Assembly: GCF_002854065.1 (NCBI RefSeq)
Contig: NZ_CP024147.1
Length of the DNA: 64,000 nt
From: Escherichia coli
GTDB taxonomy: Bacteria > Pseudomonadota > Gammaproteobacteria > Enterobacterales > Enterobacteriaceae
Direction: 5' to 3' (one strand)
The translations under genes were made by a program, and so were the position numbers. The notes under the pieces were generated by a model, which was given only the letters and a program-made list of their open reading frames with translations, had not been told where the DNA came from and searched no databases. The first letter of the stretch is position 1; every line of letters starts with the position of its first letter. Positions 36,974-59,329 of this stretch are shown here, one piece after another.

Positions 36974-37085
36974 TGGAGCACCTCAAAAACACCATCATAC
37001 ACTAAATCAGTAAGTTGGCAGCATCACCCAGTTAAGCGTATTATTGGTGCAGAGCCCGGGCGTACCGGGCTCCGTTTTGAGGGGG

Positions 37086-43772: not shown

Positions 43773-43943
<171 letters not shown>

Positions 43944-43956
43944 TAGTGACTCCAAC

Positions 43957-44460
43957 TTACTGATAGTGTTTTATGTTCAGATAATGCCCGATGACCTTGT
44001 CATGCAGCTCCACCGATTTTGAGAACGACAGTGACTTCCGTCCCAGCCTTGCCAGATGTTGTCTCAGATTCAGGTTATGTCGCTCAATGCGCTGAGTGTA
44101 ACGCTTGCTGATAACGTGCAGCTTTCCCTTCAGGCGGGGTTCATACAGCGGCCAGCCATCCGTCATCCATACCACGACCTCAAAGGCCGACAGCAGGCTC
44201 AGAAGACGCTCCAGTGTGGCCAGAGTGCGTTCACCGAAGACGTGCGCCACAACCGTCCTCCGTATCCTGTCATACGCGTAAAACAGCCAGCGCTGACGTG
44301 ATTTAGCACCGACGTAGCCCCACTGTTCGTCCATTTCCGCGCAGACGATGACGTCACTGCCCGGCTGTATGCGCGAGGTTACCGACTGCGGCCTGAGTTT
44401 TTTAAATGGCGGAAAATCGTGTTGAGGCCAACGCCCATAATGCGGGCAGTTGCCCGGCAT
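43957..44460 (-). CDS. insB: IS1 InsB (copy 2)
   Basis: 167 aa. Confidence 0.85.
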
Positions 44461-44654
44461 CCAACGCCATTCATGGCCATATCAATGATTTTCTGGTGCG
44501 TACCGGGTTGAGAAGCGGTGTAAGTGAACTGCAGTTGCCATGTTTTACGGCAGTGAGAGCAGAGATAGCGCTGATGTCCGGCAGTGCTTTTGCCGTTACG
44601 TACCACCCCGTCAGTAGCTGAACAGGAGGGACAGCTGATAGAAACAGAAGCCAC
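44379..44654 (-). CDS. insA: IS1 InsA (copy 2)
   Basis: 91 aa, near-identical to copy 1. Confidence 0.9.
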
Positions 44655-44686
44655 TAGAGCACCTCAAAAACACCATCATACACTAA

Positions 44687-45571
<885 letters not shown>

Positions 45572-45823
45572 TAAAAACCGGAAATAACGCCAGAAATGGT
45601 GGAAAAAATAGCCTAAATAGGCTGATTCGATGTGTTTGCGGGAAAAAAATCGGCCCAGATCCGCGAAATTTTAATCAACGAGTCAGCTTGGGAAGAAATG
45701 ACCTGCTTATTCGCACCTTCCTTAGTATCTATTATATTTAGCTATTTATATTGACAATGGCATGTTTATTATATCTATTAATAGTGTAAAGAGATTTTAC
45801 AGCCTTCAGGTTGGAGTGGTTTT

Positions 45824-47191
45824 ATGATGAAGGACTATTTTGGAATTGGTAGTACGGTATTTGTGAGTTTGTTGTTCGGGCTTGCATTTATTTTGGTGAA
45901 TAGTTGGTTTCATCAGCCGACTGTTAAGGAGACTGTTCCGCAATCGACATATCTGATGGTTATGATTGCTCTGTTTGTTATTGATATAATAGCATTCATT
46001 TTTATGCAGTTATATTTCATTTATGATCGTCGACAATTTTCAAACTGTATACTTGGTTTAGCCTTTCTTAGCTGTCTGATTTACTTCATTAAAACAGTCA
46101 TTATCATTCAGCAACCTATTGAGAGGGGGCTAACTAACAGCATTATTCAAAATGATACTGCTATTTATTATTTTTTCAGGCAGGTAAGCTTATGTTTATT
46201 GATTAATCTGGCGCTGGTAATTAAGTTGAATGAAAAAAATGATTTGTGTGAAAGGTGGCATAAAAGAATCGGTTTTTACATCAGTGTGATTTTTATAGTT
46301 GGCCTGCCCATTATTGCTTTCATATTTAGTAGCCAATGTGAGAACTATAGTTTAACTATAGCTGAGTTATTAAATAAAAATGGCCGAGTTGTGTGGAAAA
46401 CGTCTTATGTTATCGTGCTGATATTTATGTGGTTAATGCTGTTGGCAGTTAATTTATATTTCAATCGTTTGCGTAGTGATATCTGGAATGGGGTATCGGT
46501 GATTGCTTTTTGTGCTGTGCTATATAATGTCTCTCTTTTATTTATAGGGAGGTATAGTGTATCCATTTGGTATATTAGTCGAACTATTGAGTTGTTCAGC
46601 AAGTTAACAGTTATGGCGATATTCATGTGTCATGTATTCAGTGCGTTGCGCGTGACAAAGGATATTGCACATCGCGATCCATTAACCAATGTTTTTAACA
46701 GAAATTATTTTTTCAATGAACTGAAAAATCAATCAGCATTAGCCAAAAAAAAACCTTATTGCGTCATGATTATGGATATTGACCACTTCAAAAAAGTCAA
46801 TGACACCTGGGGGCATCCGGTTGGCGATCAAGTGATTAAAACAGTGGTGAAAATCATTGGGAAAAGTATACGGCCAAACGATCTTTTAGCACGCGTTGGC
46901 GGAGAAGAGTTTGGTGTTATGTTGACGGAGATCGATTATGAAAATGCGGAAGCCTTAGCTGAAAGGATTCGGGCAAATGTTGAGCGTTTGACGGGAGATA
47001 ATCCTGAATATGCCATCCCACAAAAAGTAACGATTAGCATTGGTGCCGTGGTGATGCATGGAAATTCGTTAAAACCGAATGAGATTTATCGGTTGGCTGA
47101 TAAAGCGCTTTATAACGCGAAAGAGTCAGGACGTAACAAGGTTGTTATGACGGAGGCAGAAAATCTTATGAACTGGAAGGATGATGATTAA
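45824..47191 (+). CDS. dgcT: Membrane-anchored diguanylate cyclase (GGEEF), DgcT/YcdT-like
   Basis: 455 aa; N-terminal transmembrane segments; RVGGEEFGVM active-site motif. Confidence 0.8.
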   Translation: MMKDYFGIGSTVFVSLLFGLAFILVNSWFHQPTVKETVPQSTYLMVMIALFVIDIIAFIFMQLYFIYDRRQFSNCILGLAFLSCLIYFIKTVIIIQQPIERGLTNSIIQNDTAIYYFFRQVSLCLLINLALVIKLNEKNDLCERWHKRIGFYISVIFIVGLPIIAFIFSSQCENYSLTIAELLNKNGRVVWKTSYVIVLIFMWLMLLAVNLYFNRLRSDIWNGVSVIAFCAVLYNVSLLFIGRYSVSIWYISRTIELFSKLTVMAIFMCHVFSALRVTKDIAHRDPLTNVFNRNYFFNELKNQSALAKKKPYCVMIMDIDHFKKVNDTWGHPVGDQVIKTVVKIIGKSIRPNDLLARVGGEEFGVMLTEIDYENAEALAERIRANVERLTGDNPEYAIPQKVTISIGAVVMHGNSLKPNEIYRLADKALYNAKESGRNKVVMTEAENLMNWKDDD

Positions 47192-47296
47192 TTCTGTCGC
47201 CAGTTGTCGAACCCCTGTCGGGGCTTCTCATCCCCCCGGCATGTGCAACATACGAAAAAAAAGCCCGTACTTTCGTACGAGCTCTTCTTTAAATAT

Positions 47297-47310
47297 GGCG
47301 GTGAGGGGGA
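47297..47310 (-). other. 14-nt match to the 3' end of a tRNA-Ser gene (reverse complement), candidate att core
   Basis: tggcggtgaggggg equals the reverse complement of ...CCCCCTCACCGCCA as I recall the tRNA-Ser(GGA) 3' end; a short match, could be chance. Confidence 0.3.
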
Positions 47311-47469
47311 CCGCCTGAAATAAATCTGACTTAATCCGGGAGTGTTATATAACCTCATTATAAACAATGCATTACAATTTTTGCTGTCCGATGTTATCTA
47401 ATGTATTCTTAGTGAAGTGAGAGACTAATGGCATACTGAATGGCATACCAGAGTAACAGGAATTAGCGT

Positions 47470-48678
47470 ATGGCAGTATTGACGGATACTAAAGCAAGGC
47501 ATATCAAACCTGATGACAAACCATTGCCCCATGGGGGAATTACAGGACTGACTCTTCATCCTTCTTCAGTAAAGGGGAGGGGTAAATGGGTTTTTCGTTA
47601 TGTAAGTCCGGTGACACAAAAAAGGCGTAATGCTGGATTGGGAACTTATCCTGAGGTCAGTATTGCTGAAGCTGCACGTACTGCCCGGATAATGCGAGAG
47701 CAACTTGCTGCAGGTGATGATCCTCTGGAGATTAAAAAGGCTGAAGCTGAAAAAGTTGTTATCCCAACATTTGCCGATGCAGCCCGGCGTGTACATGCAG
47801 AATTGTCACCGGGATGGGAAAACCCAAAGCATGTCAGGCAGTGGTTGTCGACGCTTGAAAATTACGTGTTTCCTCAACTGGGAGCAAAAACGCTGGATAC
47901 GATTACGGCTGCGGACGTGGCAGAGACACTGCGTCCAGTCTGGTTGACCTTATCAGAAACGGCAAGCCGGGTTAAACAGCGCATTCATGTTGTTATGCAG
48001 TGGGGCTGGGCGCATGGTTTTTGTGTGGCGAATCCTGTTGATGTGGTTGATCATTTGCTTCCACAGCAATCAAGAGGACGTGATGAACACCAGCCGGCAA
48101 TGCCCTGGAGGCAGTTACCGCTTTTTGTGGCGACCAGTGTGTATACAGATGAACCTTATAATGTTACCCGGGCACTGTTATTAATGGTGATACTGACAGC
48201 AACCCGCTCGGGCGAAGCAAGGGGAATGCGCTGGGCTGAAATTGATTTTCATAAGCGGATATGGACGATACCCGCAGAAAGAATGAAAGCCAGGATACAG
48301 CATCGTGTTCCTTTATCCCGACAGGCCATTCACGTTCTGGAAAATATACGTGGTCTGCATGACGAACTGGTGTTTCCTTCTCCCAGAAAGCAGCAGATCC
48401 TTTCAGATATGGTGTTGACGAGTTTTCTGCGTAAAAAGAAGGCCATCAGTGATATACCCGGACGAGTGGCTACAGCACATGGTTTTCGTTCAACATTCAG
48501 GGACTGGTGTAGCGAACAGGGATATTCGCGGGATTTGGCGGAAAGGGCGCTTGCCCATACGCTGAAAAATAAGGTTGAGGCGGCATATCACCGGACTGAT
48601 CTGCTGGATCAGCGTATACCGATGATGCAGGCATGGGCGGATTATGTGATGTCTCAGATTATGGAAAACCAGCGATGA
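47470..48678 (+). CDS. Tyrosine recombinase / integrase (internal to island)
   Basis: 402 aa; C-terminal catalytic region with HGFRSTFRDW and AYHRTD (R-H-R-Y type). Confidence 0.85.
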   Translation: MAVLTDTKARHIKPDDKPLPHGGITGLTLHPSSVKGRGKWVFRYVSPVTQKRRNAGLGTYPEVSIAEAARTARIMREQLAAGDDPLEIKKAEAEKVVIPTFADAARRVHAELSPGWENPKHVRQWLSTLENYVFPQLGAKTLDTITAADVAETLRPVWLTLSETASRVKQRIHVVMQWGWAHGFCVANPVDVVDHLLPQQSRGRDEHQPAMPWRQLPLFVATSVYTDEPYNVTRALLLMVILTATRSGEARGMRWAEIDFHKRIWTIPAERMKARIQHRVPLSRQAIHVLENIRGLHDELVFPSPRKQQILSDMVLTSFLRKKKAISDIPGRVATAHGFRSTFRDWCSEQGYSRDLAERALAHTLKNKVEAAYHRTDLLDQRIPMMQAWADYVMSQIMENQR

Positions 48679-48901
48679 AATCACATCTCACAGATTTGCA
48701 GATGTCGTCTGTAATCACGAAAAATATACTTATTGAGTTATAATGCTTGTTTGTCTGATATTTGCAATGACATAAATGTAAAAATAATACGTAATATTGT
48801 AGTTTATAAATTGAATGATAAAAACAATGCCAGTTTGTAACCGATGTCTGGCATTGTTTCAGATATTCAGGTTGGTAACTGAATGATAAAAGACGGGAAC
48901 T

Positions 48902-49254
48902 TTAATTTTTTGTAGTTATGTTCCATATTTTAGTCTGTTCTTCATTTCTGTACTTATTCAGCTTATGGTCCCAACAGACTATAAACATTCCACGCTCCAT
49001 TATCGGGATGTTTGCCTCATTTGCTAATTCACAAGGTGTAATCGCGTCACCGATATAAATGATTTTTTGGCCGATTGAATAATCAATTACGATTTTTTTC
49101 TGTTCTGCAAGTATATCAAGTGCTTCATCAAGAACACATTTATTCCTGAGAGCATATGGACCATATTGCAGTATATGGCTTTTTTGATATTCGTATCCTT
49201 TTACCCGGATGATATTTTCTCTGAGCCATTTATCCAGTTTTTCTGCAGGAGATA
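48902..49254 (-). pseudogene. 5'-truncated gene remnant (about 117 C-terminal codons) ending at the IS903 boundary
   Basis: Open frame without a start: ...LSPAEKLDKWLRENIIRVKGYEYQKSHILQYGPYALRNKCVLDEALDILAEQKKIVIDY...NITTKN. Confidence 0.4.
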
Positions 49255-50311
49255 GGCTTTGTTGAATAAATCGAACTTTTGCTGAGTTGAAGGATCAGAT
49301 CACGCATCTTCCCGACAACGCAGACCGTTCCGTGGCAAAGCAAAAGTTCAAAATCACCAACTGGCCCACCTACAATAAAGCCCTCATCAACCGTGGCTCC
49401 ATAACTTTCTGGCTGGATGATGAAGCTATTCAGGCCTGGTATGAGTCAGCAACACCTTCTTCACGAGGCAGACCTCAGCGCTATTCTGACCTTGCCATCA
49501 CGACTGTGCTGGTCATTAAACGCGTATTCAGGCTGACCCTGCGCGCTGCGCAGGGCTTTATTGATTCCATTTTTTCTCTGATGAACGTTCCGCTACGCTG
49601 CCCGGATTACAGCTGTGTCAGCAGGCGGGCAAAGTCGGTTAATGTCAGTTTCAAAACGCCCACCCGGGGTGAAATCGCACACCTGGCAATTGATTCCACC
49701 GGGCTGAAGGTCTTCGGTGAAGGCGAGTGGAAAGTCAAAAAGCATGGCCAGGAACGCCGCCGTATCTGGCGTAAGCTGCATCTCGCCGTTGACAGTAAAA
49801 CACATGAAATCATCTGTGCAGACCTGTCGCTGAACAACGTTACGGACTCAGAGGCCTTCCCCGGGTTAATCCGGCAAACCCACCGGAAAATCAGGTCAGC
49901 CGCCGCCGATGGCGCTTACGATACCCGGCTATGTCACGATGAACTGCGGCGTAAGAAAATCAGCGCGCTTATCCCTCCCCGAAAAGGTGCGGGTTACTGG
50001 CCCGGTGAATATGCAGACCGTAACCGTGCAGTGGCTAATCAGCGAATGACCGGGAGTAATGCGCGGTGGAAATGGACAACAGATTACAACCGTCGCTCGA
50101 TAGCGGAAACGGCGATGTACCGGGTAAAACAGCTGTTCGGGGGGGCACTGACGCTGCGTGACTACGATGGTCAGGTTGCGGAGGCTATGGCCCTGGTACG
50201 AGCGCTGAACAAAATGACGAAAGCAGGTATGCCTGAAAGCGTGCGTATTGCCTGAAAACACAACCCGCTACGGGGGAGACTTACCCGAAATCTGATTTAT
50301 TCAACAAAGCC
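49255..50311 (+). mobile_element. IS903-group insertion sequence (IS5 family), 1057 bp, no target-site duplication
   Basis: 18-bp terminal inverted repeats ggctttgttgaataaatc / gatttattcaacaaagcc; flanks caggagata / actctgatc differ. Confidence 0.88.
49287..50255 (+). CDS. IS903-type DDE transposase
   Basis: 322 aa, ...TNWPTYNKALINRGSITFWLDDEAIQAWYE... Confidence 0.85.
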   Translation: MKDQITHLPDNADRSVAKQKFKITNWPTYNKALINRGSITFWLDDEAIQAWYESATPSSRGRPQRYSDLAITTVLVIKRVFRLTLRAAQGFIDSIFSLMNVPLRCPDYSCVSRRAKSVNVSFKTPTRGEIAHLAIDSTGLKVFGEGEWKVKKHGQERRRIWRKLHLAVDSKTHEIICADLSLNNVTDSEAFPGLIRQTHRKIRSAAADGAYDTRLCHDELRRKKISALIPPRKGAGYWPGEYADRNRAVANQRMTGSNARWKWTTDYNRRSIAETAMYRVKQLFGGALTLRDYDGQVAEAMALVRALNKMTKAGMPESVRIA

Positions 50312-50393
50312 ACTCTGATCGCAAAATTCGCTTTATGAACTACTTTAAAAACAAAGCGGTATGTGTTAAACATAATAAAGGACTAAATTTAAT

Positions 50394-50816
50394 TTGTATT
50401 TATCATTATATAAAGGTGATCTAATGATAGCAAAGGGTTATAAGCTCCCTCATGAATTTCCTCATGAATCCTTTATACAAGAAGTTCTTGAAGATTTTTT
50501 TGAAAGCGAAGGATATTCTATAATCGAAGAAAAACCGATAGATGTAAAATGTTCAAATGCAGACAAGAATGAAACTTGGATTATTGAAGTGAAGGGGAAA
50601 ACATCACAGATTGGGCTAGATTTCAAGACATGTTTAGGTCAGATTGTAATGCGAATGAATAATCCTGATTATATATATGCTATCGCTATGCCCGATATAG
50701 AACAGTACCACAAACAGGTAAACAAAGTGTCATCTAAAATTGCTGCCAAAATTAATTTAAACTGGATTTTTGTCAGCGACAAGGGAACTATTGAAATAAT
50801 TCGTAACTGTGATTAG
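50394..50816 (+). CDS. Hypothetical protein, 140 aa (possible PD-(D/E)xK nuclease-like motif)
   Basis: Isolated ORF between IS903 and IS3; segment PIDVK...ETWIIEVKGK resembles a D...E-x-K core; weak. Confidence 0.4.
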   Translation: MYLSLYKGDLMIAKGYKLPHEFPHESFIQEVLEDFFESEGYSIIEEKPIDVKCSNADKNETWIIEVKGKTSQIGLDFKTCLGQIVMRMNNPDYIYAIAMPDIEQYHKQVNKVSSKIAAKINLNWIFVSDKGTIEIIRNCD

Positions 50817-51091
50817 ACTCATCGTATTCTCTCGACACTCACCACTCTTTTTATTCGGAATAGGTGAGTGCCATACATTATATTTTTAAAAGTAGATAAC
50901 ATGTCGTTCATATCGACTTATAATTGATTTATTCATATGTAAGACATATACCTCCGTGTTTCCTTTCAGAGCAACTGGATGATAAATGATATCGCTGTTT
51001 TCTCGACTAACCCGATAGGATGCGGTATCTGAGCAATACACACTCAACACCCCACTTGAACTGATCCTACCCACGTAATATGGACACAGGC

Positions 51092-51958
51092 CTAAGCGAG
51101 GTTCTTGTTTTCAAATTGTTCCGGACTGAGGCCGCCACACCAACTGTGCCGCCGCCACCGATTGTAATCACATTCGATATAATTAAACACCGTTGCCCGC
51201 ATTATTTCCCGGCTGATAAAGTGTTCTCCATGGATACATTCCACTTTCAGCGAATGAAAGAAGCTTTCCACGCAGGCATTATCGTAGCAGCAACCTTTTG
51301 CGCTCATACTTCCACGCAGATTATGCCGCTTCAGTTGCGCCTGATAATCTGCTGAACAGTACTGGCCTCCACGGTCCGTGTGAACGATAACGTTCCGGGG
51401 CCTCTTACGCCGCCACAGCGCCATCTGCAGGGCATCGCAGGCCAGTTGCGCCGTCATGCGTGGCGACATTGACCAGCCAATAACGGCACGTGACCACAGG
51501 TCAATGACCACTGCCAGATACAGCCAGCCTTCATCTGTACGTAAGTACGTGATGTCTCCTGCCCACTTCTGGTTCGGGCCACTGGCGTAAAAATCCTGCT
51601 CCAACAGATTTTCTGACACAGGCAGGCCGTGTGCGCGGTAGCTGACCGGGCTGAACTTCCGGGAGGCCTTTGCCCTCAGTCCCTGACGGCGCAGGCTTGC
51701 CGCCACGGTTTTTACGTTAAAGGGGTAACCCTGAGCACGCAGTTCATCCGTCAGGCGTGGGGCACCGTAACGCTGTTTTGACCGGGTAAAAGCCGCGAGG
51801 ACAACGCTGTCGCAGTGTTGGCGGAACTGCTGACGCGTGCTTATCCTTGTCCGCCGCTGACACCACGTATACCAGCCGCTGCGGGCCACCCGGAGCACGC
51901 GGCACATTGCTTTGATGCTGAACTCAGCCTGATGTTTTTCAATAAAGACATACTTCAT
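51092..51958 (-). CDS. insF: IS3 OrfB (InsF), DDE transposase
   Basis: 288 aa [38 protein letters not shown]. Confidence 0.88.
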
Positions 51959-52254
51959 TTCAGGCGCTTCGCGAAGTATGTCGCGGCCTTTTGGAGGATA
52001 GCCAGCTCTTCATCCCGTTCTGCCAGCTGGCGTTTGAGACGTGCAATCTCGGTAGACATCTCCAGTTCACGTTCAGAAGACGTCTGCTGATTTTGCTGTT
52101 TACTGCGCCAGTTGTAGAGCTGTGATTCATACAGGCTGAGTTCACGGGCTGCGGCAGTAACACCGATGCGTTCAGCAAGCTTCAGGGCTTCACTGCGAAA
52201 TTCAGGCGAATGCTGTTTACGGGGTTTTTTACTGGTTGATACTGTTTTTGTCAT
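51955..52254 (-). CDS. insE: IS3 OrfA (InsE)
   Basis: [53 protein letters not shown]. Confidence 0.88.
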
Positions 52255-52319
52255 GTGAGTCACCTCTGACTGAGAGTTTACTCACTTAGCCGCGTGTCCA
52301 CTATTGCTGGGTAAGATCA

Positions 52320-52676
52320 AACAACCGCCAGCGCCTGATTGATGATTTTCAGGCTCAGCCTGGGTTTGGGGTGATTATTCTCTCTACGGTTGCTGTCGGG
52401 TTTGGCGTTAACGTCCAGAAAGCCAATCATGTGATTCATTTTACTCGCTGCTGGAATCCAGCCAAAGAAGATCAGGCTACGGATCGGGCGTATCGCATTG
52501 GGCAAACTAAAGATGTGTATGTCTATTACCCAACTGTGAGAGATACTGAAATCACAACATTTGAAGAAACTCTGGATAACCTCCTACAACGCCGACGAGC
52601 ATTGGCCAGAGATATGCTCTGCGCTACTCCCGATTTGAACTGTGGGGATTTTGAGACCATTTTGAAGGGAGCCTAA
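52320..52676 (+). pseudogene. C-terminal fragment of an SNF2/superfamily-2 helicase, split by IS3 and lacking its N-terminal domains
   Basis: ...IDDFQAQPGFGVIILSTVAVGFGVNVQKANHVIHFTRCWNPAKEDQATDRAYRIGQTKDVYVY (helicase motifs V-VI); in-frame upstream continuation across the IS3 duplication hits a stop at 51008. Confidence 0.6.
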
Positions 52677-53237
52677 CCGATATGAGCGGCAATACTACCA
52701 GTTGCCAAACCTGAAATAACACTTAGCTGTGATGATTCGCTATTACCTATCGATAGCTTCGGAAAACATAAATTAAAAATGCCCAGAGGAGTACTATTAT
52801 CGTTAGCATTACCCGAACGCCGTATTAACGGTTATTTATTGGTAAGTGCTACGTTCCATGGCAAGAGTTCATCAACAGGTTGGAAGGCCATTCCGGCAAA
52901 ACTCTCAGTATATGGCGCAGATACCATTCAGACAGCAGGTCCCGCTCAGCCCGTACAGTAGAGCGCCGTTCACTACCGTAATCGCTACCGAAGAACACAT
53001 TGATTGCCCCTCAATAATCCTGCTGTTAACATCAAAATTGTTGGTCGGGCTCGATTTATTTAATTGTGTAAACAGGGTCTCTCAGAGAAAGGCCCTTATG
53101 CATCACCTGACGTTAAAAGTCACTACACCCAAGATGACGTTCAAAGTGTCATAGTCCCCTGCGCTGAGGACAAAGCCACACGTTAACAACAAATCCACGC
53201 GATAACTTACGATGGTTCGGGCATAAGCCCCCATAAT

Positions 53238-53801
53238 TCAGTTATGTCGTGGTCGGCCGCGGTTACTTTTTTCGGGAAGCCTGCTACGGCCCAGAATAAT
53301 ACCGTGTTCTTTCTGATCCTGTTTAGCCAGGTAGCTGAGGGCGTAACGTAAGTCGTCTACCGCAGACTTATCACTATAGTGAATCACGTGATCGATACGC
53401 ACCGGGTATTTATCTTTAGCCCGGCACAGGTGAAAATAACCATCCCCTTCCGTGATCCGCCTCCAGATATCTCCCAGTTGCCTGGATATCTGATAAGAGT
53501 TCTTATGACGTTGCCCATCTAGGTAACCGATAAAATGAATATGAAGTCCCTTGTTTTGTGTATATTCCATTACCCAGTAATATCCCGCCAACATCGATTG
53601 GGTTTCGCTAAGTAAACGGTATATTTCCATACACATACTGTGCTTACAGGAATGCCCGAAACTGGGCGTGTCTTTCCTGTAGGCAAAATCAATTCTGAAA
53701 GGTAACAGTTTAGAAAAACGTTGAAACATACCGTCCATGTGTTCATTCACATCTTTCAGAATCGCGAAATTCATTTCGTAATTGGGATTGGCATTATACA
53801 T
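53238..53801 (-). CDS. YagK/YfjJ-family protein (inovirus Gp2-like, putative replication initiation)
   Basis: 187 aa, MYNANPNYEMNFAILKDVNEHMDGMFQRFSKLLPFRIDFAYRKD; family from memory. Confidence 0.55.
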   Translation of the reverse strand: MYNANPNYEMNFAILKDVNEHMDGMFQRFSKLLPFRIDFAYRKDTPSFGHSCKHSMCMEIYRLLSETQSMLAGYYWVMEYTQNKGLHIHFIGYLDGQRHKNSYQISRQLGDIWRRITEGDGYFHLCRAKDKYPVRIDHVIHYSDKSAVDDLRYALSYLAKQDQKEHGIILGRSRLPEKSNRGRPRHN

Positions 53802-54676
53802 TTTATAGTCCTTACTTTATAAAACTCACAGGAAGGTGGAATTACATAAATACTGAGAGTACAGAAACGCCGTACCACTGCATTAATAAACTGGGTAACC
53901 AGTATGCAGACAACCTGATAAAACTGTTTCTTATTACCTCATTACAGTAATGGGGGTAATACTTCAGAATACAGTGAGGCTCTCTTAAACAGAGGACCAG
54001 TAAGAATTACAATGGTAAAAACATACCCCATAGAATTAACTTTAAGGAAACACCATTCAATCACTTAAAGGAAGTAATCTGACATTCACAAAAGTCAGTA
54101 TCGGGTAGCTACAGGCAACACCGCTATTGATACTCCCGCACCATTAAGTAAAAACATCAACTCAGCTTAAGGCCTCTACAGATATTTAATCTCCACCATA
54201 AACAATAACGGAGCTATAACGTACGAACCAGACACACATTCAATGATTAACTTTCTCAATATTACACTATGAGAAAGTGACATAATTTAACATATAACTA
54301 AACAACATACACTACTCACTGATGTATATACATCACATACCTACAGACTAAGCAGAATGGTCAGCATAAAGAGGAGCGACAATACGATAAAAAGAGATAA
54401 AACAATATAACAGATCACATAACTCCCACTAATAATACTAATTAACCTAAATTATTTATTGAACACGAGAACAATGAGGGAACCTCCTCATCTAGGACTA
54501 AAGCCAGCAATATCCTGAGCAACACTCTATCCAATAGTAAATAATGGTTATACCAGTTATATTTGCTGACTGACCTGTACCAGAGTTCTGTAATACAACA
54601 ACGCTGACATGGTAAAGGCATTAGTCTCCTCCGCAAGTAGCAGAGGAGACTATATGTTACTCAACGATTAAGTCGT

Positions 54677-56110
54677 TCAGAGGTCAAAGTTAGGTGCGAC
54701 ATACCACGTTTTTCCCTCAATAACCGGTACAACTCTGTTTTGTTCATACAGTAAATCCAGTAACCAATTGATTTTATCCTTTTTCCGGAAACGGTTCGGA
54801 CCACGCTGTAAAATGTCATTTTTTTTCATACAGGGGATCCCCTTCTCAATGCAATAGCTTTTTATCCAGTTAAAAAGTTCAAGCTCCTCTGGAATGAGTC
54901 GCACAGGTACGGTCAGGGCAGAGTTTTCAAACGTTAACGGACTGGATAACCGAACATACTCATTACCATACCATATTGCTAATTCTCTCGCCATTTCAGC
55001 AGTGTAGGGGGAAATGTCACCTTCCTCACCGCTAAAATGGTGAATAAGTCCTGCCAGTCTTGCCATATACTCTGCATTTTTAGCAGCATATTCTCTGAAG
55101 TCTCTTAAAGGCCCCAGAACCGACATCTTCGATTCCACATCGTTGTAATAGTCCGTCCAGATTCTGGCTGCCTGAGGAGAAAAGTGAAGGCAACGCCGCT
55201 CTCCCCTCATCGCCAGGCTTTCATCAATGAGTTCATTTATCCTCTGTTCAAACAAATCCTGATACTGTGATGAATAATTATCTCCTGTTATTATCCTTGT
55301 CCCCTGCGTTGATGTTGGTTGACACATCAAAAACCTTGCATGATGTCCCGACGTTTTCACAAGTTCTTTTTTTCGTGTACAAAAACCTTTGTGGTAAACA
55401 TCAGGCTGAACCATCACCGATATCGTCAGTCTTGGTTCCTTCAAAAAAATTCCGGGAGATGATTTCCTGTCGATGAAAAGAGAACCACCATCCCACAAAG
55501 AGTTAAGTATTCCCAGTTTACTCATTGCCCGGCTGTCAAAAATTATCCCACCTTCACTGGATACAAGAGCAAAAGAGCGATTGCTATCAGAATAATATTT
55601 TAACATTCCCTCTATCGTTGTATCATTAAAAATTGTTCGATGTATCTGTGGTGGAACAGGACACTTATTCAGATGTGTTTTAAGCTCTGATTCTGTTGTC
55701 TTATAATCTTTACCGGCACGAATCTCTTTATGAAGTTTTGACTCCAGTGCTTTTTGTTTTTGCTCCCATATTTCCTTTTCTGTACTGTAATTCTCAACCA
55801 GTTTCGCGTATTCTTCCGCCAGGGCTTCATCCCTGAGATAAAATGCTTTCATAAACACTTTATCCACGGTCGTTTTCCTTTCACCAGAATCAGCCAGAAT
55901 CATAGAGTAAATATTAGAGGACCCACGTAAATTTCCTGGCCTGCACACATCAACCTGATTCTGACAGGCAATTGACATCGCTGTTAATGCTGCAGTTATC
56001 GCCATAGCTATAGGTGTCTGTGTATTCTTTTGAGTTTCAATTATTGCATTTCTCGCCAGCGGTGGCATTGCATATATCGGACAAGGATTTTCTGGTGCAA
56101 GTAAGCACAT
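54677..56110 (-). CDS. YfjI-like DUF3987 protein (putative primase/replication protein of P4/PICI-like elements)
   Basis: Start chosen at MCLLAPENPCPIY by alignment with the duplicated 5' fragment; family from memory. Confidence 0.55.
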   Translation of the reverse strand: MCLLAPENPCPIYAMPPLARNAIIETQKNTQTPIAMAITAALTAMSIACQNQVDVCRPGNLRGSSNIYSMILADSGERKTTVDKVFMKAFYLRDEALAEEYAKLVENYSTEKEIWEQKQKALESKLHKEIRAGKDYKTTESELKTHLNKCPVPPQIHRTIFNDTTIEGMLKYYSDSNRSFALVSSEGGIIFDSRAMSKLGILNSLWDGGSLFIDRKSSPGIFLKEPRLTISVMVQPDVYHKGFCTRKKELVKTSGHHARFLMCQPTSTQGTRIITGDNYSSQYQDLFEQRINELIDESLAMRGERRCLHFSPQAARIWTDYYNDVESKMSVLGPLRDFREYAAKNAEYMARLAGLIHHFSGEEGDISPYTAEMARELAIWYGNEYVRLSSPLTFENSALTVPVRLIPEELELFNWIKSYCIEKGIPCMKKNDILQRGPNRFRKKDKINWLLDLLYEQNRVVPVIEGKTWYVAPNFDL

Positions 56111-56358
56111 AAATGCCTCTCTTTTCATTAATGGGTTAGTAAAGTAGCAGCAACTCCCGCTATAATAGCGAAAATAGCTGCTGTTCAGACCTAATGTTCT
56201 GAAAAATACAGAATATCTGTAGATCTGATGTTTAATAACCGATAAGGTTAATTCAGTTCAGACTGTGTTATTTACCACGAAATATCATTCATGTTTCTCA
56301 TTCTTAACACCTCCTAAAATTATTTCACTAACACCTTCCCCCCGGTCTTTTTCCTTTC

Positions 56359-56586
56359 TCAGGAATCAGCCAGAACCATAGTGTAAATATTAACGGGCCC
56401 ACGTAAATTTCCGGAGCTGCACACGTCAATCTGATTCTGACAGGCAATTGACATCGCTGTTAATAATGATGTTGTAGTCATAGCCAGAGATGCTTTTTCA
56501 TTTTGTTGAGTTTCAATTATTGCATTTCCAGTCATTGATGGTTGCGCATATACTGGATACGGAGTATCCGGTTTGATGTAAGACAT
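56359..56586 (-). pseudogene. Duplicated 5' fragment (75 codons) of the YfjI-like gene
   Basis: MSYIKPDTPYPVYAQPSMTGNAIIETQQNEKASLAMTTTSLLTAMSIACQNQIDVC... parallels the N-terminus of the 54677-56110 gene; part of a ~330-bp segmental duplication. Confidence 0.5.
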
Positions 56587-56691
56587 AAATATTCCCTTTT
56601 TTCGTAATGACTTTCGGTTATAGCAGCTATTTCCGCTACAATAGCAACAATAGCTGCTATACAGACTGGATATACTGAAAATACAAACAGT

Positions 56692-56940
56692 TCATCTGGT
56701 CTGTATCCAGCAGAGAAGGTCACTTAACAACCATCCGCAAGATTTCTTTCCGATAGACTTACGTGGTGGAAATTTTCCCTCCCGTTCAAGTTTCCACGCT
56801 TGCGTACGAGAAACTGACGTGATCTCATATCGTTCCTTTTCACGTACCAGTCTGTCGCATTCAATCCCATAAGCTTTCAAAATGACCAGACGCTGTTCAT
56901 CTGTTAATGGAAGCCACATACTACCCTCCTGATATATCAA
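56692..56940 (-). CDS. alpA: AlpA-family phage/island transcriptional regulator (winged-helix DNA-binding)
   Basis: C-terminal ...ITSVSRTQAWKLEREGKFPPRKSIGKKSCGWLLSDLLCWIQTR resembles AlpA/Vis; true start may be the internal Met at 56919. Confidence 0.65.
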   Translation of the reverse strand: MIYQEGSMWLPLTDEQRLVILKAYGIECDRLVREKERYEITSVSRTQAWKLEREGKFPPRKSIGKKSCGWLLSDLLCWIQTR

Positions 56941-57611
56941 TACTTTTTATTTCCGGCATGAGCATGAAATGACTAAGTTTCCCGGATAAACAATGAGTGA
57001 AAGTCACTGTCATTCATCCAGCCAACACCTTGCAAATAAAATGTAATACTATGATTTTTATAGGTCAAAATACTGAATTACAATGTTAAAATGGCTTTTA
57101 ATAGAAAAAATAAAGACATATAGAGCCAAATAAAAATAAACTACGACAAATAAAAACAAAAGATTAATATTAAAAATCCATTATGACGATTTTTATTGAC
57201 TAAAATCAGGTTGGGATATATAAATAAATCCATGTAAAATTCAAACAAGGCATGGAGGAGTCGCAGGAAGGTGAAATATTTCCATCTAATTTGTGATAAT
57301 CATCACAAAAATAAGCTACAACAAGCGGAGGAAAAGACAATCTGTTGCTGAACAGACAGAAGCAGGCTACGAATGATCGGAAAATGAAGCAAATACGCTT
57401 ATACAGAAGACGCAGGGGTAACTGACGGAGACAATCACAATCAGGAGAAAATGATCGTAAATAATGTATAAAATCTCAGGATATAAACAAATGTACACAA
57501 GCTATCCACGTAATCTGCGGCTGGCTCAGGATTAACGTTTCATTTCAGTGGACGACATCGATTCTGTCTGACAGTGGGCCAATATGTGGCAAGCAGAAAA
57601 CTTCTGACATC

Positions 57612-59243
57612 ATGGTAACTCGGACAATGCAACAAAAGTATGATCGTGTTTTATCTGGCGAATCCCATCCATTCCCTGGCATATACGAGGCGGTTTCCGA
57701 ACAACTCCTTTTGCTCATCTTTAAGGCTCGTCAGCTATATCAGAATCCAGAATATCGCCCCTGGTTTGAAGAACAGCACAGAGTTCTCTCTGCATTACGT
57801 GCTAATACAGAGCTCTTGAGAATATTTAGAGAACAAAGAAACGCGGAAGAACCAGAGCTTATTATTAAAGAATCTACATTACCCCTACTCACTAATTCTA
57901 ATCTTACAGATGCGCTTAATATTATGTGCCATTTATACAATGGTTTTGATGAAGGAAATATCAGTCTGAAAACCTGGGGGGCGATGCAAGAGGTACAGAC
58001 AACATCAACCTTTATCAGCCCGGGACCGAGAACCTGGAAAACACCTGAACTGGCAAAGTTTGTAGGAGATGATTTATTTAATATTCTGACTGAATGTAAA
58101 GCCTGGAGTTCACCAATTCCAGCAGAAACCCGACAGGGCTATTGCCATCAGGATCTGTCTGTTGCACACTCCTGCACCTCAGAGTTACTGGCACACCTGA
58201 ATCAATACCATGAAATTGATGAATCAGCAATACTTGCCAGAGTTATTGGTATGACGGTTAACGGATTCTACAAGAAAAATAATACAGACCTCCCAGAATG
58301 GCTATCCCCCTTTAAAGAGGAACATAAAATATTCAGAGATTGTCTGGAGCAAAAGACCGAGGATGTAATCAGACTGAAAGAACAACTGTTGAAAACAGGA
58401 CGTTCAGAATTCGTGAATAATTTGTGTCGGGTCGCCAACTGGTATGAAATTAAGTCAATATACGATGAATATGTCCGTCTTTATGCCAATGAAATCATTG
58501 GTTGGTTCAACAAAACCATGGAATATTTTAAACCAACAGATTTTATCCGATATACATGGAAATTCGCAACAGTTACTCCAGGTAAAGAGACAGAAACCAA
58601 GCATACAACTGCATGGGAAAAGGATTATTGCCAGATAACTATACAACGTGATGAACTTCTGAGATTGATTCACACGAATACCCTTCAGGATGCAGTAATT
58701 TATCTTTGCCATTGTCTGCAGAAGAAATACAAGAAATCATCCCAAAATGAGATAGAGTTTCCAGGAATAAAACCTCCGGCATCAGAGAGTGAAATTAATA
58801 TAACAGATAGTTTTGAATTTTATTCTCTCCTGGAGCTCAGTAAAGATAATGAGAGACGGCTGGAAACATTTCAAAAATGGTATGAAAAAAATAAAGTTTT
58901 GTTAGAAAGTCATAAACAAAAACGAACAGAGAAGATTGACGTTGCCGTACGACTTGTAGGGCTGAAAGCCTATGATCTGCATGAAGGGATTCCGGATAGT
59001 CCAAAACGAAAAGTTAAAGATGGCATAAATGAAGACATCAAAGCCGATACCAGTTTACGCCTGCCAAAGACAAATATAAGTGATACGTCGCTAAACCGTT
59101 ATCGCCGCACTGTTAAGGAGATTATCAATAACGAAATCGACGCATTCCTGTTGGAACAGAAGAAAAAAAATAAAAGATTTCCCTACAGTGAAGATAGAGA
59201 TGTGATTCGACCTTTATGGGGAAAATGCCTGACCGGGCAGTAG
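57612..59243 (+). CDS. Hypothetical protein, 543 aa, no recognisable domain (candidate novel cargo gene A)
   Basis: Long uninterrupted ORF in lower-GC DNA between alpA and the terminal integrase; I could not match any motif (no Walker A, no obvious nuclease or polymerase signature). Confidence 0.6.
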   Translation: MVTRTMQQKYDRVLSGESHPFPGIYEAVSEQLLLLIFKARQLYQNPEYRPWFEEQHRVLSALRANTELLRIFREQRNAEEPELIIKESTLPLLTNSNLTDALNIMCHLYNGFDEGNISLKTWGAMQEVQTTSTFISPGPRTWKTPELAKFVGDDLFNILTECKAWSSPIPAETRQGYCHQDLSVAHSCTSELLAHLNQYHEIDESAILARVIGMTVNGFYKKNNTDLPEWLSPFKEEHKIFRDCLEQKTEDVIRLKEQLLKTGRSEFVNNLCRVANWYEIKSIYDEYVRLYANEIIGWFNKTMEYFKPTDFIRYTWKFATVTPGKETETKHTTAWEKDYCQITIQRDELLRLIHTNTLQDAVIYLCHCLQKKYKKSSQNEIEFPGIKPPASESEINITDSFEFYSLLELSKDNERRLETFQKWYEKNKVLLESHKQKRTEKIDVAVRLVGLKAYDLHEGIPDSPKRKVKDGINEDIKADTSLRLPKTNISDTSLNRYRRTVKEIINNEIDAFLLEQKKKNKRFPYSEDRDVIRPLWGKCLTGQ

Positions 59244-59329
59244 ATCACTGAGGGGATAACAGCCCGGTTATCCCCTGTTTGTTCTGCTTCAGGTTGCCAG
59301 AGCTCTAGGAACACGAGGCAATCGGCAAA

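Follow-up and report, generated by a model that had tools for sequence, protein, structure and literature searches.

Excision of the fdxN element by XisF depends on both XisH and XisI. For XisH itself, no catalytic activity has been demonstrated, and the part that it plays has been described as unclear (PMC4874684). Helicase activity in the 5'-3' direction has been established for a DUF3987 protein, whose partner in an integrase-bearing element is a primase-polymerase (PMC11724360). Among insertion sequences, IS903 is known for adjacent deletions; a missing target duplication usually denotes either an adjacent deletion or recombination between IS copies, and the deletions can grow stepwise (PMC11708052).

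These systems are the closest points of comparison for a junction in the 64-kb window (the whole stretch of DNA analyzed) of an Escherichia coli chromosome. The junction probably lies in a P4-type-integrase island that adjoins dgcT and is decaying, and it was scrambled by insertion sequences: at least one later IS event would have given an IS903B element hybrid flanks, with a 750-bp ICE fragment on its right. The IS junction itself represents ordinary IS-driven decay, and the only new element at this locus is a family of XisH-like, nuclease-fold proteins that is not covered by existing models.

The IS903B element (IS5 family) is complete, with a length of 1057 bp (49255..50311, + strand). Its 18-bp inverted repeat, GGCTTTGTTGAATAAATC, occurs exactly twice in the window, at positions 49255-49272 (+) and 50294-50311 (-), with no mismatches between the termini; in shuffled sequences no occurrence is expected. 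The intact transposase ORF (49287-50255, 322 aa) matched both DDE_Tnp_1_5 (7.6e-40, model positions 1-112 of 112) and DDE_Tnp_1 (5.4e-33, model positions 4-199 of 200), and the element shares 99.5% identity with copies bearing the RefSeq annotation IS903B, including that of strain PT62. The repeat search and the Pfam analysis are thus in agreement with the original prediction of a 1057-bp IS903-type element bounded by perfect inverted repeats. The unlike 9-bp flanks described in that prediction were also found, namely CAGGAGATA (49246-49254) and ACTCTGATC (50312-50320), with no target-site duplication. Length, repeats and intact transposase are those of the IS903 group, and the absence of the 9-bp duplication leaves this identity unaffected; the missing duplication does indicate an IS-associated rearrangement. 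IS903 was matched in 2,040 E. coli genomes. A second copy with reciprocal flanks was sought in the 64-kb window, where only the single copy was found.

The island is anchored on the left, next to dgcT, by a gene for a P4-type tyrosine integrase (47470..48678, + strand) with Arm-DNA-bind_3, Phage_int_M and Phage_integrase domains; in strains SMS-3-5, PT62 and AH25, its annotation is that of a tyrosine recombinase/integrase. Adjoining the left end of IS903B is the dead 3' remnant of a DUF3987 (YfjI-type) helicase gene (48902..49254, - strand), comprising codons 405-521 of 521. As predicted from the outset, this minus-strand frame is truncated at its 5' end, being open as far as the insertion sequence with its 5' part missing. 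The same prediction had assigned it to no family; 116 of its 117 residues are identical to residues 405-521 of a 521-aa product (L001:9223-10788, WP_000164164.1), which identifies it as part of a DUF3987 protein. The remnant DNA is present in 172 E. coli genomes, in which it is annotated accordingly. No Pfam match was obtained for the remnant, since the DUF3987 domain covers residues 32-394 of the full-length protein and stops short of the surviving portion. The ATPase domain is therefore absent, and the remnant represents a fragment of a DUF3987 (PF13148) gene rather than a functional member of the family. By its sequence identity, the left gene is the helicase of the island's replication module and not a component of an accessory system.

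To the right of IS903B, an intact, solitary gene (50424..50816, + strand) encodes a 130-aa, XisH-like protein with a PD-(D/E)xK nuclease fold (hereafter ORF130), which is identical to WP_101969527.1. The original prediction had described a 140-aa ORF at 50394-50816. Such a frame exists, beginning with TTG at position 50394, but the RefSeq start of the identical gene in other strains is the ATG at 50424, giving 130 aa, and a good Shine-Dalgarno sequence (AAAGGTGATCTA) stands ahead of this ATG; together, these render the shorter version the better call. The 112 bp between the insertion sequence and the gene (50312..50423, + strand), including the Shine-Dalgarno sequence AAGGTGA, are the remainder of a native 281-bp upstream region, of which the other 169 bp have been replaced by IS903B. 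In E8, 74-2, p53EVA-3 and the ICE of the cat strain, the sequence is uninterrupted across the point corresponding to 50312. Promoter scans revealed no sigma-70-like site on the + strand, either at 50312..50423 or in the native upstream region. Downstream of the gene, the non-coding tail of the ICE-derived fragment (50817..51061, + strand) extends to the junction with IS3. The tail is contiguous in plasmid p53EVA-3 and strain 74-2 up to 51061/51062, where an SCPU/Csu-type fimbrial operon follows in both.

The native home of ORF130 is a PilV/PilS/TraD/MobQ conjugative element of the Enterobacterales. Its fragment is native and unbroken in ICEs of Klebsiella, Enterobacter and E. coli as well as in plasmid p53EVA-3, and the gene in the window is full length and 98-100% identical to the copies found elsewhere. 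On every E. coli chromosome in which the fragment lies outside an ICE it is bounded by insertion sequences: the bounding IS1 occurs at several different positions, and the bounding IS3 always at one and the same junction. In a search for related loci, based on an alignment of 15 sequences, no neighbor was shared among 20 loci from diverse phyla, no recurrent partner was detected in 26 loci upon all-against-all BLASTP of the neighboring proteins, and no recurrent Pfam family was observed in 10 immediate upstream genes and 85 neighbors. A serine recombinase was located upstream in one of the 10 immediate neighbors tested. Homologues of ORF130 are also carried on plasmids of 3-5 kb, and a variant found on small plasmids has a length of 240 aa. 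The gene would be a stand-alone item of mobile-element cargo, with no obligatory partner. The suggestion that both ORFs are leftovers of an accessory system destroyed by the insertion sequence is not borne out, as ORF130 is intact, solitary and native to a conjugative element. Since the left flank derives from an island helicase and the right flank from a conjugative-element gene, the two are not halves of one system split by the insertion.

The fragment ends on the right at a 1258-bp IS3 (51062..52319, - strand), whose junctions are common to other strains: the left one to E8, EC1515, J2 and ET565, and the right one to CUWW10. This IS3 cuts an SNF2/helicase gene, of which a C-terminal remnant of 118 aa is left (52320..52676, + strand; Helicase_C, 5.1e-12); its counterpart in CUWW10 is annotated as a "helicase-related protein, missing N-terminus". 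The remnant opens a second, inverted island, which includes Gp2/YfjJ (53238-53801) and YfjI/DUF3987 (54677-56128). A former contiguity of the ORF130 fragment with the helicase remnant, considered in view of the AAC found on both sides of IS3, was rejected: stop codons abound in the frame to the left of IS3, which makes chance (1 in 64) or an older junction the probable source of the match. A search of Rfam over positions 46900-53300 returned two matches, both far below the gathering scores.

The hybrid flanks of IS903B are best explained by a later IS-mediated event that replaced its neighbors. After the insertion of IS903B, at least one further event of this type would have replaced one or both of them: intramolecular transposition could have deleted or inverted the adjacent DNA, or the element could have recombined with another IS903 copy. 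The outcome on the left would be that codons 405-521 alone remain, as a pseudogene devoid of start, promoter and ATPase domain; on the right, it would be the 750-bp fragment at 50312-51061 from the PilV/PilS/TraD/MobQ conjugative element, carrying one complete gene and meeting IS3 at its far end. IS903B is present in the same helicase gene and in the same orientation in PT62, AH25 and the window, with ~614, 603 and 353 nt of the gene remaining, respectively. None of these three junctions carries a duplication, and the right flank is different in each. Across 5,426 complete E. coli genomes, no progenitor was found in which IS903 is simply inserted at one or the other junction, no record spanned the junction of a chimeric query (E8 up to the 9-bp site, joined to the IS903 left end), and the window's own IS903 junctions appeared in no record searched; we therefore infer, rather than reconstruct, the order and type of events.

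Two rival histories were weighed against this reading. That one adjacent deletion by IS903 removed all that lay between the helicase gene and ORF130, within an island that carried both, is improbable, even though IS903 makes such deletions and the two genes do co-occur in one island family, represented by E8 (int, DUF3987, HTH, hyp607, YfjJ, two zinc-ribbon genes, McrBC, IS903 fragment, IS3, ORF130). The ~11 kb between these genes, including McrBC, is indeed missing from the window. In E8-type islands with both genes, however, ORF130 and DUF3987 are 11.4 kb apart on the same strand, whereas in the window they are on opposite strands, an arrangement that one deletion cannot yield; in view of this spacing and orientation, a simple deletion fails to explain the junction. 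Moreover, the IS903 of E8 is situated between McrC and the IS3 downstream of ORF130, whereas that of the window is upstream of ORF130, and the junction of the ORF130 fragment with IS3 is common to ET565, where the left neighbor is IS1 and the chromosomal site is another, which points to several steps. Hence, of the IS-mediated deletion originally proposed, the IS-associated rearrangement that truncated the left gene stands, while deletion alone conflicts with the gene orientations in E8. In the other history, two IS903B copies would have undergone homologous recombination to yield an element with hybrid flanks: one copy within the DUF3987 gene, as in PT62 and AH25, the other upstream of ORF130 on a fragment of ICE origin, whether incoming or resident. 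Together with a matching exchange at IS3, this is possible but rather less than probable. The segment 50312-51061 is bracketed by two insertion sequences that are both abundant in E. coli, and the combination in IS3 of a left junction as in E8/ET565 with a right junction as in CUWW10 is the signature of an IS3 recombination hub. Yet no genome of the collection has IS903 beside position 50312, on either side, and transposase-driven nibbling accounts for the nested left junctions of PT62, AH25 and the window better than homologous exchange does.

Turning to the product of ORF130, the predicted structure displays the alpha-beta-beta-beta-alpha-beta core fold of the PD-(D/E)xK superfamily. Among 78 diverse homologues (130-aa numbering), D40 is retained in 73, E55 in 75 and K57 in 70, in addition to E15 (69 of 78) and Q73 (65 of 78). 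The positions of D40, E55 and K57 agree with strands 2 and 3 of the predicted structure, as befits the superfamily. The D...E-x-K pattern, originally perceived as weak, is therefore conserved and not a product of chance, and the possible PD-(D/E)xK core is upheld by the predicted structure, the fold search and the conservation of the motif. The original prediction had also tied its fate to the presence of a nuclease fold and of homologues in a conserved context; the fold is present, and the context is conserved only in close enterobacterial relatives. In total, the family comprises 552 cluster representatives at 50% identity from bacteria and archaea; certain members carry a fused OGG-like glycosylase domain. 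Searches of the family against Pfam, NCBIfam, PADLOC and PHROGs yielded nothing at threshold, and with the PADLOC-DB 2.0 defense models no family matched the ORF or any of four homologues at E<=0.1.

Nuclease activity of the 130-aa protein is a prediction drawn from fold and motif. These suggest a metal-dependent DNA endonuclease, whose active site would comprise E15 (helix 1), D40 (at the start of strand 2), E55-x-K57 (strand 3) and Q73 (helix 2). As it possesses no separate DNA-recognition domain, the protein would probably function as a homo-oligomer whose target is a DNA structure or lesion and not a specific sequence. We tentatively propose, with low confidence, that it is the founding member of an unrecognized sister family to XisH, made up of PD-(D/E)xK endonucleases that stand alone on mobile elements and have a biological role of their own. 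If so, this role could be, for example, single-gene defense or, during ICE or plasmid transfer, the processing of DNA that is damaged, modified or branched.

Other roles were considered for the protein. That of a single-gene anti-phage or anti-plasmid defense nuclease or toxin, residing in cargo hotspots of mobile elements, seems unlikely. The ICE copies are located a few kb from genes for type III RM, Hachiman, SIR2-HerA, TIR, a retron-like RT and type I RM, neighbors in distant genomes include DUF3800 (twice), HEPN, AbiJ, Mrr_cat and GIY-YIG proteins, and homologues are cargo on tiny plasmids; but many other neighbors are housekeeping genes (uvrC, pgsA, adenine deaminase, CoA transferase), there is no PADLOC model match and no immunity, methylase or antitoxin partner, and 130 aa is too short to accommodate a sensor or specificity domain. 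Still more doubtful is a non-catalytic, XisH-like function as a DNA-binding accessory of site-specific recombination, serving ICE excision or shufflon inversion. The D/E/K triad is retained in at least 90% of the members, which argues for catalysis, no XisI-like or other recurrent partner is evident, and homologues on 3-kb plasmids and beside housekeeping genes have no recombinase nearby. These points are set against the position of the gene amid PilV shufflon, PilS and TraD genes in the ICEs, two large serine recombinases directly upstream at one distant locus, and the fact that, by two methods, the closest solved structures are those of XisH proteins. Even so, the Pfam XisH model is not reached: the 130-aa protein gave no match at E<=1, and none of the 78 family members matched at E<=0.01. 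The family profile matched the sequence of 2okf with an E value of 0.018, which is marginal and level with spurious matches to NDC80. The latter, obtained with the profile against PDB sequences, were discarded, since their catalytic columns fail to align.

For annotation, the locus illustrates the shuffling and erosion of E. coli integrase islands by three insertion sequences, IS903B, IS3 and IS1; a lone passenger gene of a conjugative element can become stranded between IS copies at several chromosomal sites. Its wider value resides in the small protein only, which represents a broad nuclease-fold family with well-conserved active-site residues, borne on ICEs and 3-5 kb plasmids. Should it possess a defined activity, the "hypothetical protein" labels throughout this family could be replaced, and the function of XisH-type proteins might be clarified as well.

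Compared with known systems, the insertion sequence resembles IS903/IS903B (IS5 family, IS903 group) in its 1057-bp length, perfect 18-bp inverted repeats and single DDE transposase. IS903 normally leaves a 9-bp duplication upon insertion, and its absence here reflects the history of this copy, not a property of the element. The left remnant shares with DUF3987/YfjI-type helicases, such as AgaPH, only the 117 C-terminal residues; these lie entirely outside the domain that contains Walker A and B, and the remnant thus cannot be functional. Its full-length relative (99% identical C-terminus) adjoins a P4-type integrase and an AlpA-like HTH gene. XisH (PF08814; PDB 2okf, 2inb) shares ~18% identity with the 130-aa protein, which falls outside that family both by the HMM threshold and by its lack of a xisI or XisF-type recombinase context. 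The ORF130 family has neither a XisI partner nor a consistent serine recombinase and, unlike XisH, occurs in enterobacterial ICEs, in plasmids and in many non-cyanobacterial phyla. The minimal, stand-alone PD-(D/E)xK proteins compared were the C-terminal domain of NucS (2vld), Hjc (1gef), YraN/UPF0102 (3fov), Mrr_cat and NOV_C, none of which matches the 130-aa protein at curated thresholds. Relative to these minimal nucleases, the G-x-T...D-F-x-T-x-L-G-Q block and the P90 motif are both conserved in, and specific to, the ORF130 family.

The window represents a chromosome segment of E. coli type. In it, pgaABCD (about 37.5-43.6 kb) is followed by a copy of IS1 and a truncated transposase gene of IS5 type (43942-45719), inserted between pgaA and dgcT, by dgcT/ycdT itself (45824-47191) and by a P4-type tyrosine integrase (47470-48678); a second IS1 is located at 36261-37030. 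To the right of an IS3 (51062-52319) lies a second island in inverted orientation (52320-61615). It opens directly after the IS with a helicase C-terminal remnant (from 52320), continues with a Gp2/YfjJ-like gene (53238-53801), an intact YfjI/DUF3987 gene (54677-56128), an HTH gene and hypothetical genes, and is closed by a second gene for a tyrosine integrase (60056-61372), annotated in strain CUWW10, to which the island is 98% identical. Two islands of like composition are therefore arranged back to back.

Between the first integrase and the IS3, a complete IS903B (49255-50311, 1057 bp) separates a minus-strand frame from a small plus-strand ORF. The element itself is as originally described, with perfect inverted repeats and unequal flanks: the 18-mer GGCTTTGTTGAATAAATC was found only at its two ends, inverted (0 expected by chance), and its 322-aa ORF contains both DDE domains of the transposase at full length. 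This copy is 99.5% identical to those named IS903B by RefSeq, and no second IS903 copy was detected in the window. The 9 bp outside its ends differ (CAGGAGATA versus ACTCTGATC), so that there is no target duplication.

The minus-strand frame (48902-49254), initially considered to be of unknown family, is identical in 116 of 117 positions to the C-terminal residues 405-521 of WP_000164164.1, a 521-aa protein of strain SMS-3-5 annotated as containing a DUF3987 domain. The remnant alone matched no Pfam family, since it lies wholly beyond the DUF3987 domain (residues 32-394 of the full-length protein). Intact islands have, in this order, the genes for integrase, DUF3987, AlpA-like HTH, a 607-aa hypothetical protein and YagK/YfjJ (inovirus Gp2-like). 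A PriCT-DUF3987 protein has been shown to act as a 5'-3' helicase, which serves with a primase-polymerase to replicate an integrase-bearing element (PMC11724360). By this identity, gene order and precedent, the frame is the dead 3' end of the island's gene for its replication helicase, and not a gene of an accessory system.

On the right of the IS903B, the ATG at 50424 is preceded by AAAGGTGATCTA and is equivalent to the RefSeq start of the identical gene in other strains, yielding a complete protein of 130 aa (50424-50816). The TTG start originally proposed at 50394 lacks comparable upstream support or RefSeq annotation and was rejected. The protein has the same sequence as WP_101969527.1 of strain ET565 and differs from the common allele by one residue, V41 (codon at 50544-50546) versus the I41 of most copies, adjoining the catalytic-motif residue D40. 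The V41 allele was found on only four contigs, including that of ET565, which also carries the window's arrangement of ORF, IS3 and second island.

The gene is borne by integrative conjugative elements (ICEs): those of Enterobacter and Klebsiella contain homologues that are 63% identical to it, and nearly identical copies are present in ICEs of E. coli and, again, Klebsiella. In the ICEs it is flanked by PilV-shufflon, PilS pilin and TraD genes on one side and by a MobA/MobL (MobQ) relaxase on the other, near variable defence cargo (type III RM, Hachiman, SIR2-HerA, TIR and retron-like RT). In Enterobacter plasmid p53EVA-3 (L043 7353-13861) and in E. coli 74-2, the ORF fragment is continuous with an SCPU/Csu-type chaperone-usher fimbrial operon, which is absent from the window. 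The same contiguity was observed in E. coli and Klebsiella ICEs (L050, L051), and the operon, 99.1% identical, also occurs downstream of an IS cluster in the AH25 island by dgcT (L004 13274-17663). The flanks of the IS903B are hence a helicase tail of an island and a complete ICE-derived gene, and not the leftovers of one destroyed system.

The gene is solitary, and no recurrent neighbour was found in 20 loci from Proteobacteria, Clostridia, Chloroflexi, Acidobacteria and archaea. A 240-aa protein of 3-5 kb ColE1-like plasmids is 44% identical to it in its N-terminal half, and the C-terminal 110 residues matched no family. The 240-aa gene comes after a 99-aa acidic ORF (L044 283-1376; L045 946-2038), and in at least 25 records the pair constitutes a conserved two-gene cargo of very small plasmids, from E. 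coli, Klebsiella, Citrobacter and Enterobacter.

Outside the ICEs, the E. coli copies of the ORF are always bounded by IS elements. The downstream boundary is IS3, always at the same junction (51061/51062), and its right junction (52319/52320, with the helicase remnant) is common to CUWW10, where the same IS3 adjoins dgcT. The trinucleotide AAC stands on both sides of this IS3 (51059-51061 and 52320-52322), as in a 3-bp duplication; yet the flanks are from unrelated contexts shared with different strains and the frame left of the IS3 is closed, and the match is probably due to chance. The upstream boundary is IS903B in the window, and in other strains IS1 was found at differing positions: about 534 bp (E8) and about 255 bp (EC1515, J2) upstream of the IS903 junction seen in the window; in ET565 it lies 45 bp inside that junction. 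In MB46 and PEC403 the match begins 17 and 27 bp inside this junction.

An IS-mediated deletion was originally invoked for the junction. IS-associated rearrangement is upheld, but the arrangement cannot be derived from an ancestor like E8 by one adjacent deletion. In E8, EC1515 and J2 the ORF shares an island family with an intact DUF3987 gene, on the same strand and 11.4 kb apart, separated by HTH, hyp607, YfjJ, two zinc-ribbon genes, McrBC, an IS903 3' fragment and IS3, whereas in the window the remnant and the ORF are on opposite strands and the IS903B is upstream of the ORF. Among these intervening genes, the window has only a diverged YfjJ/Gp2 copy (91% identical). The nearest relatives of the left side, PT62 (99.85% identical) and AH25, have IS903B in the same gene and orientation, 261 and 250 bp further in, leaving nested DUF3987 lengths of about 614 nt (L003 8003-8616) and 603 nt (L004 8003-8605), versus 353 nt in the window. 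None of the three has a target duplication, and the right neighbour of the IS903B differs in each. IS903 is well known for generating adjacent deletions, IS-adjacent deletions can enlarge stepwise, and missing duplications generally reflect adjacent deletion or recombination between IS copies (PMC11708052). The nested series thus has the appearance of IS903 adjacent deletion proceeding step by step in natural isolates. Two or more IS-mediated events, with IS903B acting on the left side and IS3 on the other, would have joined an ICE-derived passenger fragment to the truncated island; we infer this sequence of events, since neither the window's junctions nor a progenitor with a simple insertion occurs in any complete E. 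coli genome of the collection. The IS scar as such is ordinary.

An AlphaFold2 model built on eight homologues was confident (pLDDT 86.2, pTM 0.80), and its predicted element order (helix 15-28; strands 32-34, 41-45 and 50-56; helix 63-77; strand 83-90) is that of the PD-(D/E)xK core. In Foldseek, two XisH structures ranked first against the PDB (2inb, E 1.9e-5), and 'DNA repair' and MmcB-like proteins were matched among viral models. An exhaustive profile search recovered 552 cluster representatives at E<=0.001 (137 at E<=1e-10), most of which stand alone and are about 130 aa long. Across 78 diverse aligned members, sharing 23-63% identity with the query, D40 (73/78), E55 (75/78), K57 (70/78), G58 (73/78), G72 (75/78), Q73 (65/78), E15 (69/78) and P90 (76/78) were conserved. 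Predicted fold and motif thus give good support to the earlier guess of a nuclease core, made from a weak D...ExK pattern. Pfam, NCBIfam, PADLOC and PHROG had no model at threshold, and a handful of members weakly matched NOV_C, Mrr_cat, UPF0102, NERD and PDDEXK_9, all nuclease-fold families; the protein represents a new, unmodelled family inside a well-known superfamily.

The model and the conserved motif suggest an active, metal-dependent DNA endonuclease, probably oligomeric, that would operate without a dedicated partner. A few members carry an N-terminal fusion to an OGG-like glycosylase domain or DUF7669, hinting, together with an OGG-domain neighbour, at action on damaged or modified DNA. 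The OGG-like 8-oxoguanine glycosylase (PF21790) fusion was seen in P0055 (385 aa), and the one OGG-domain neighbour among the proteins encoded around the loci of alignment A4 (L020, L023-L042). The defence cargo of the ICEs is compatible with a single-gene defence nuclease or toxin, a rival reading of the protein. The other rival, a non-catalytic XisH-like recombination accessory, draws on the structural ranking, and the conserved D, E and K residues favour the active endonuclease. XisH is needed with XisI for excision of the fdxN element, its role being described as unclear (PMC4874684). When its sequence is aligned with the 130-aa family, a marginal match (E 0.018), the motifs D, E-V-K, L-G-Q and A-V-P coincide, and the placement, in this family, of D40 just before strand 2 and of E55-x-K57 at the end of strand 3 is the same as in canonical PD-(D/E)xK enzymes.
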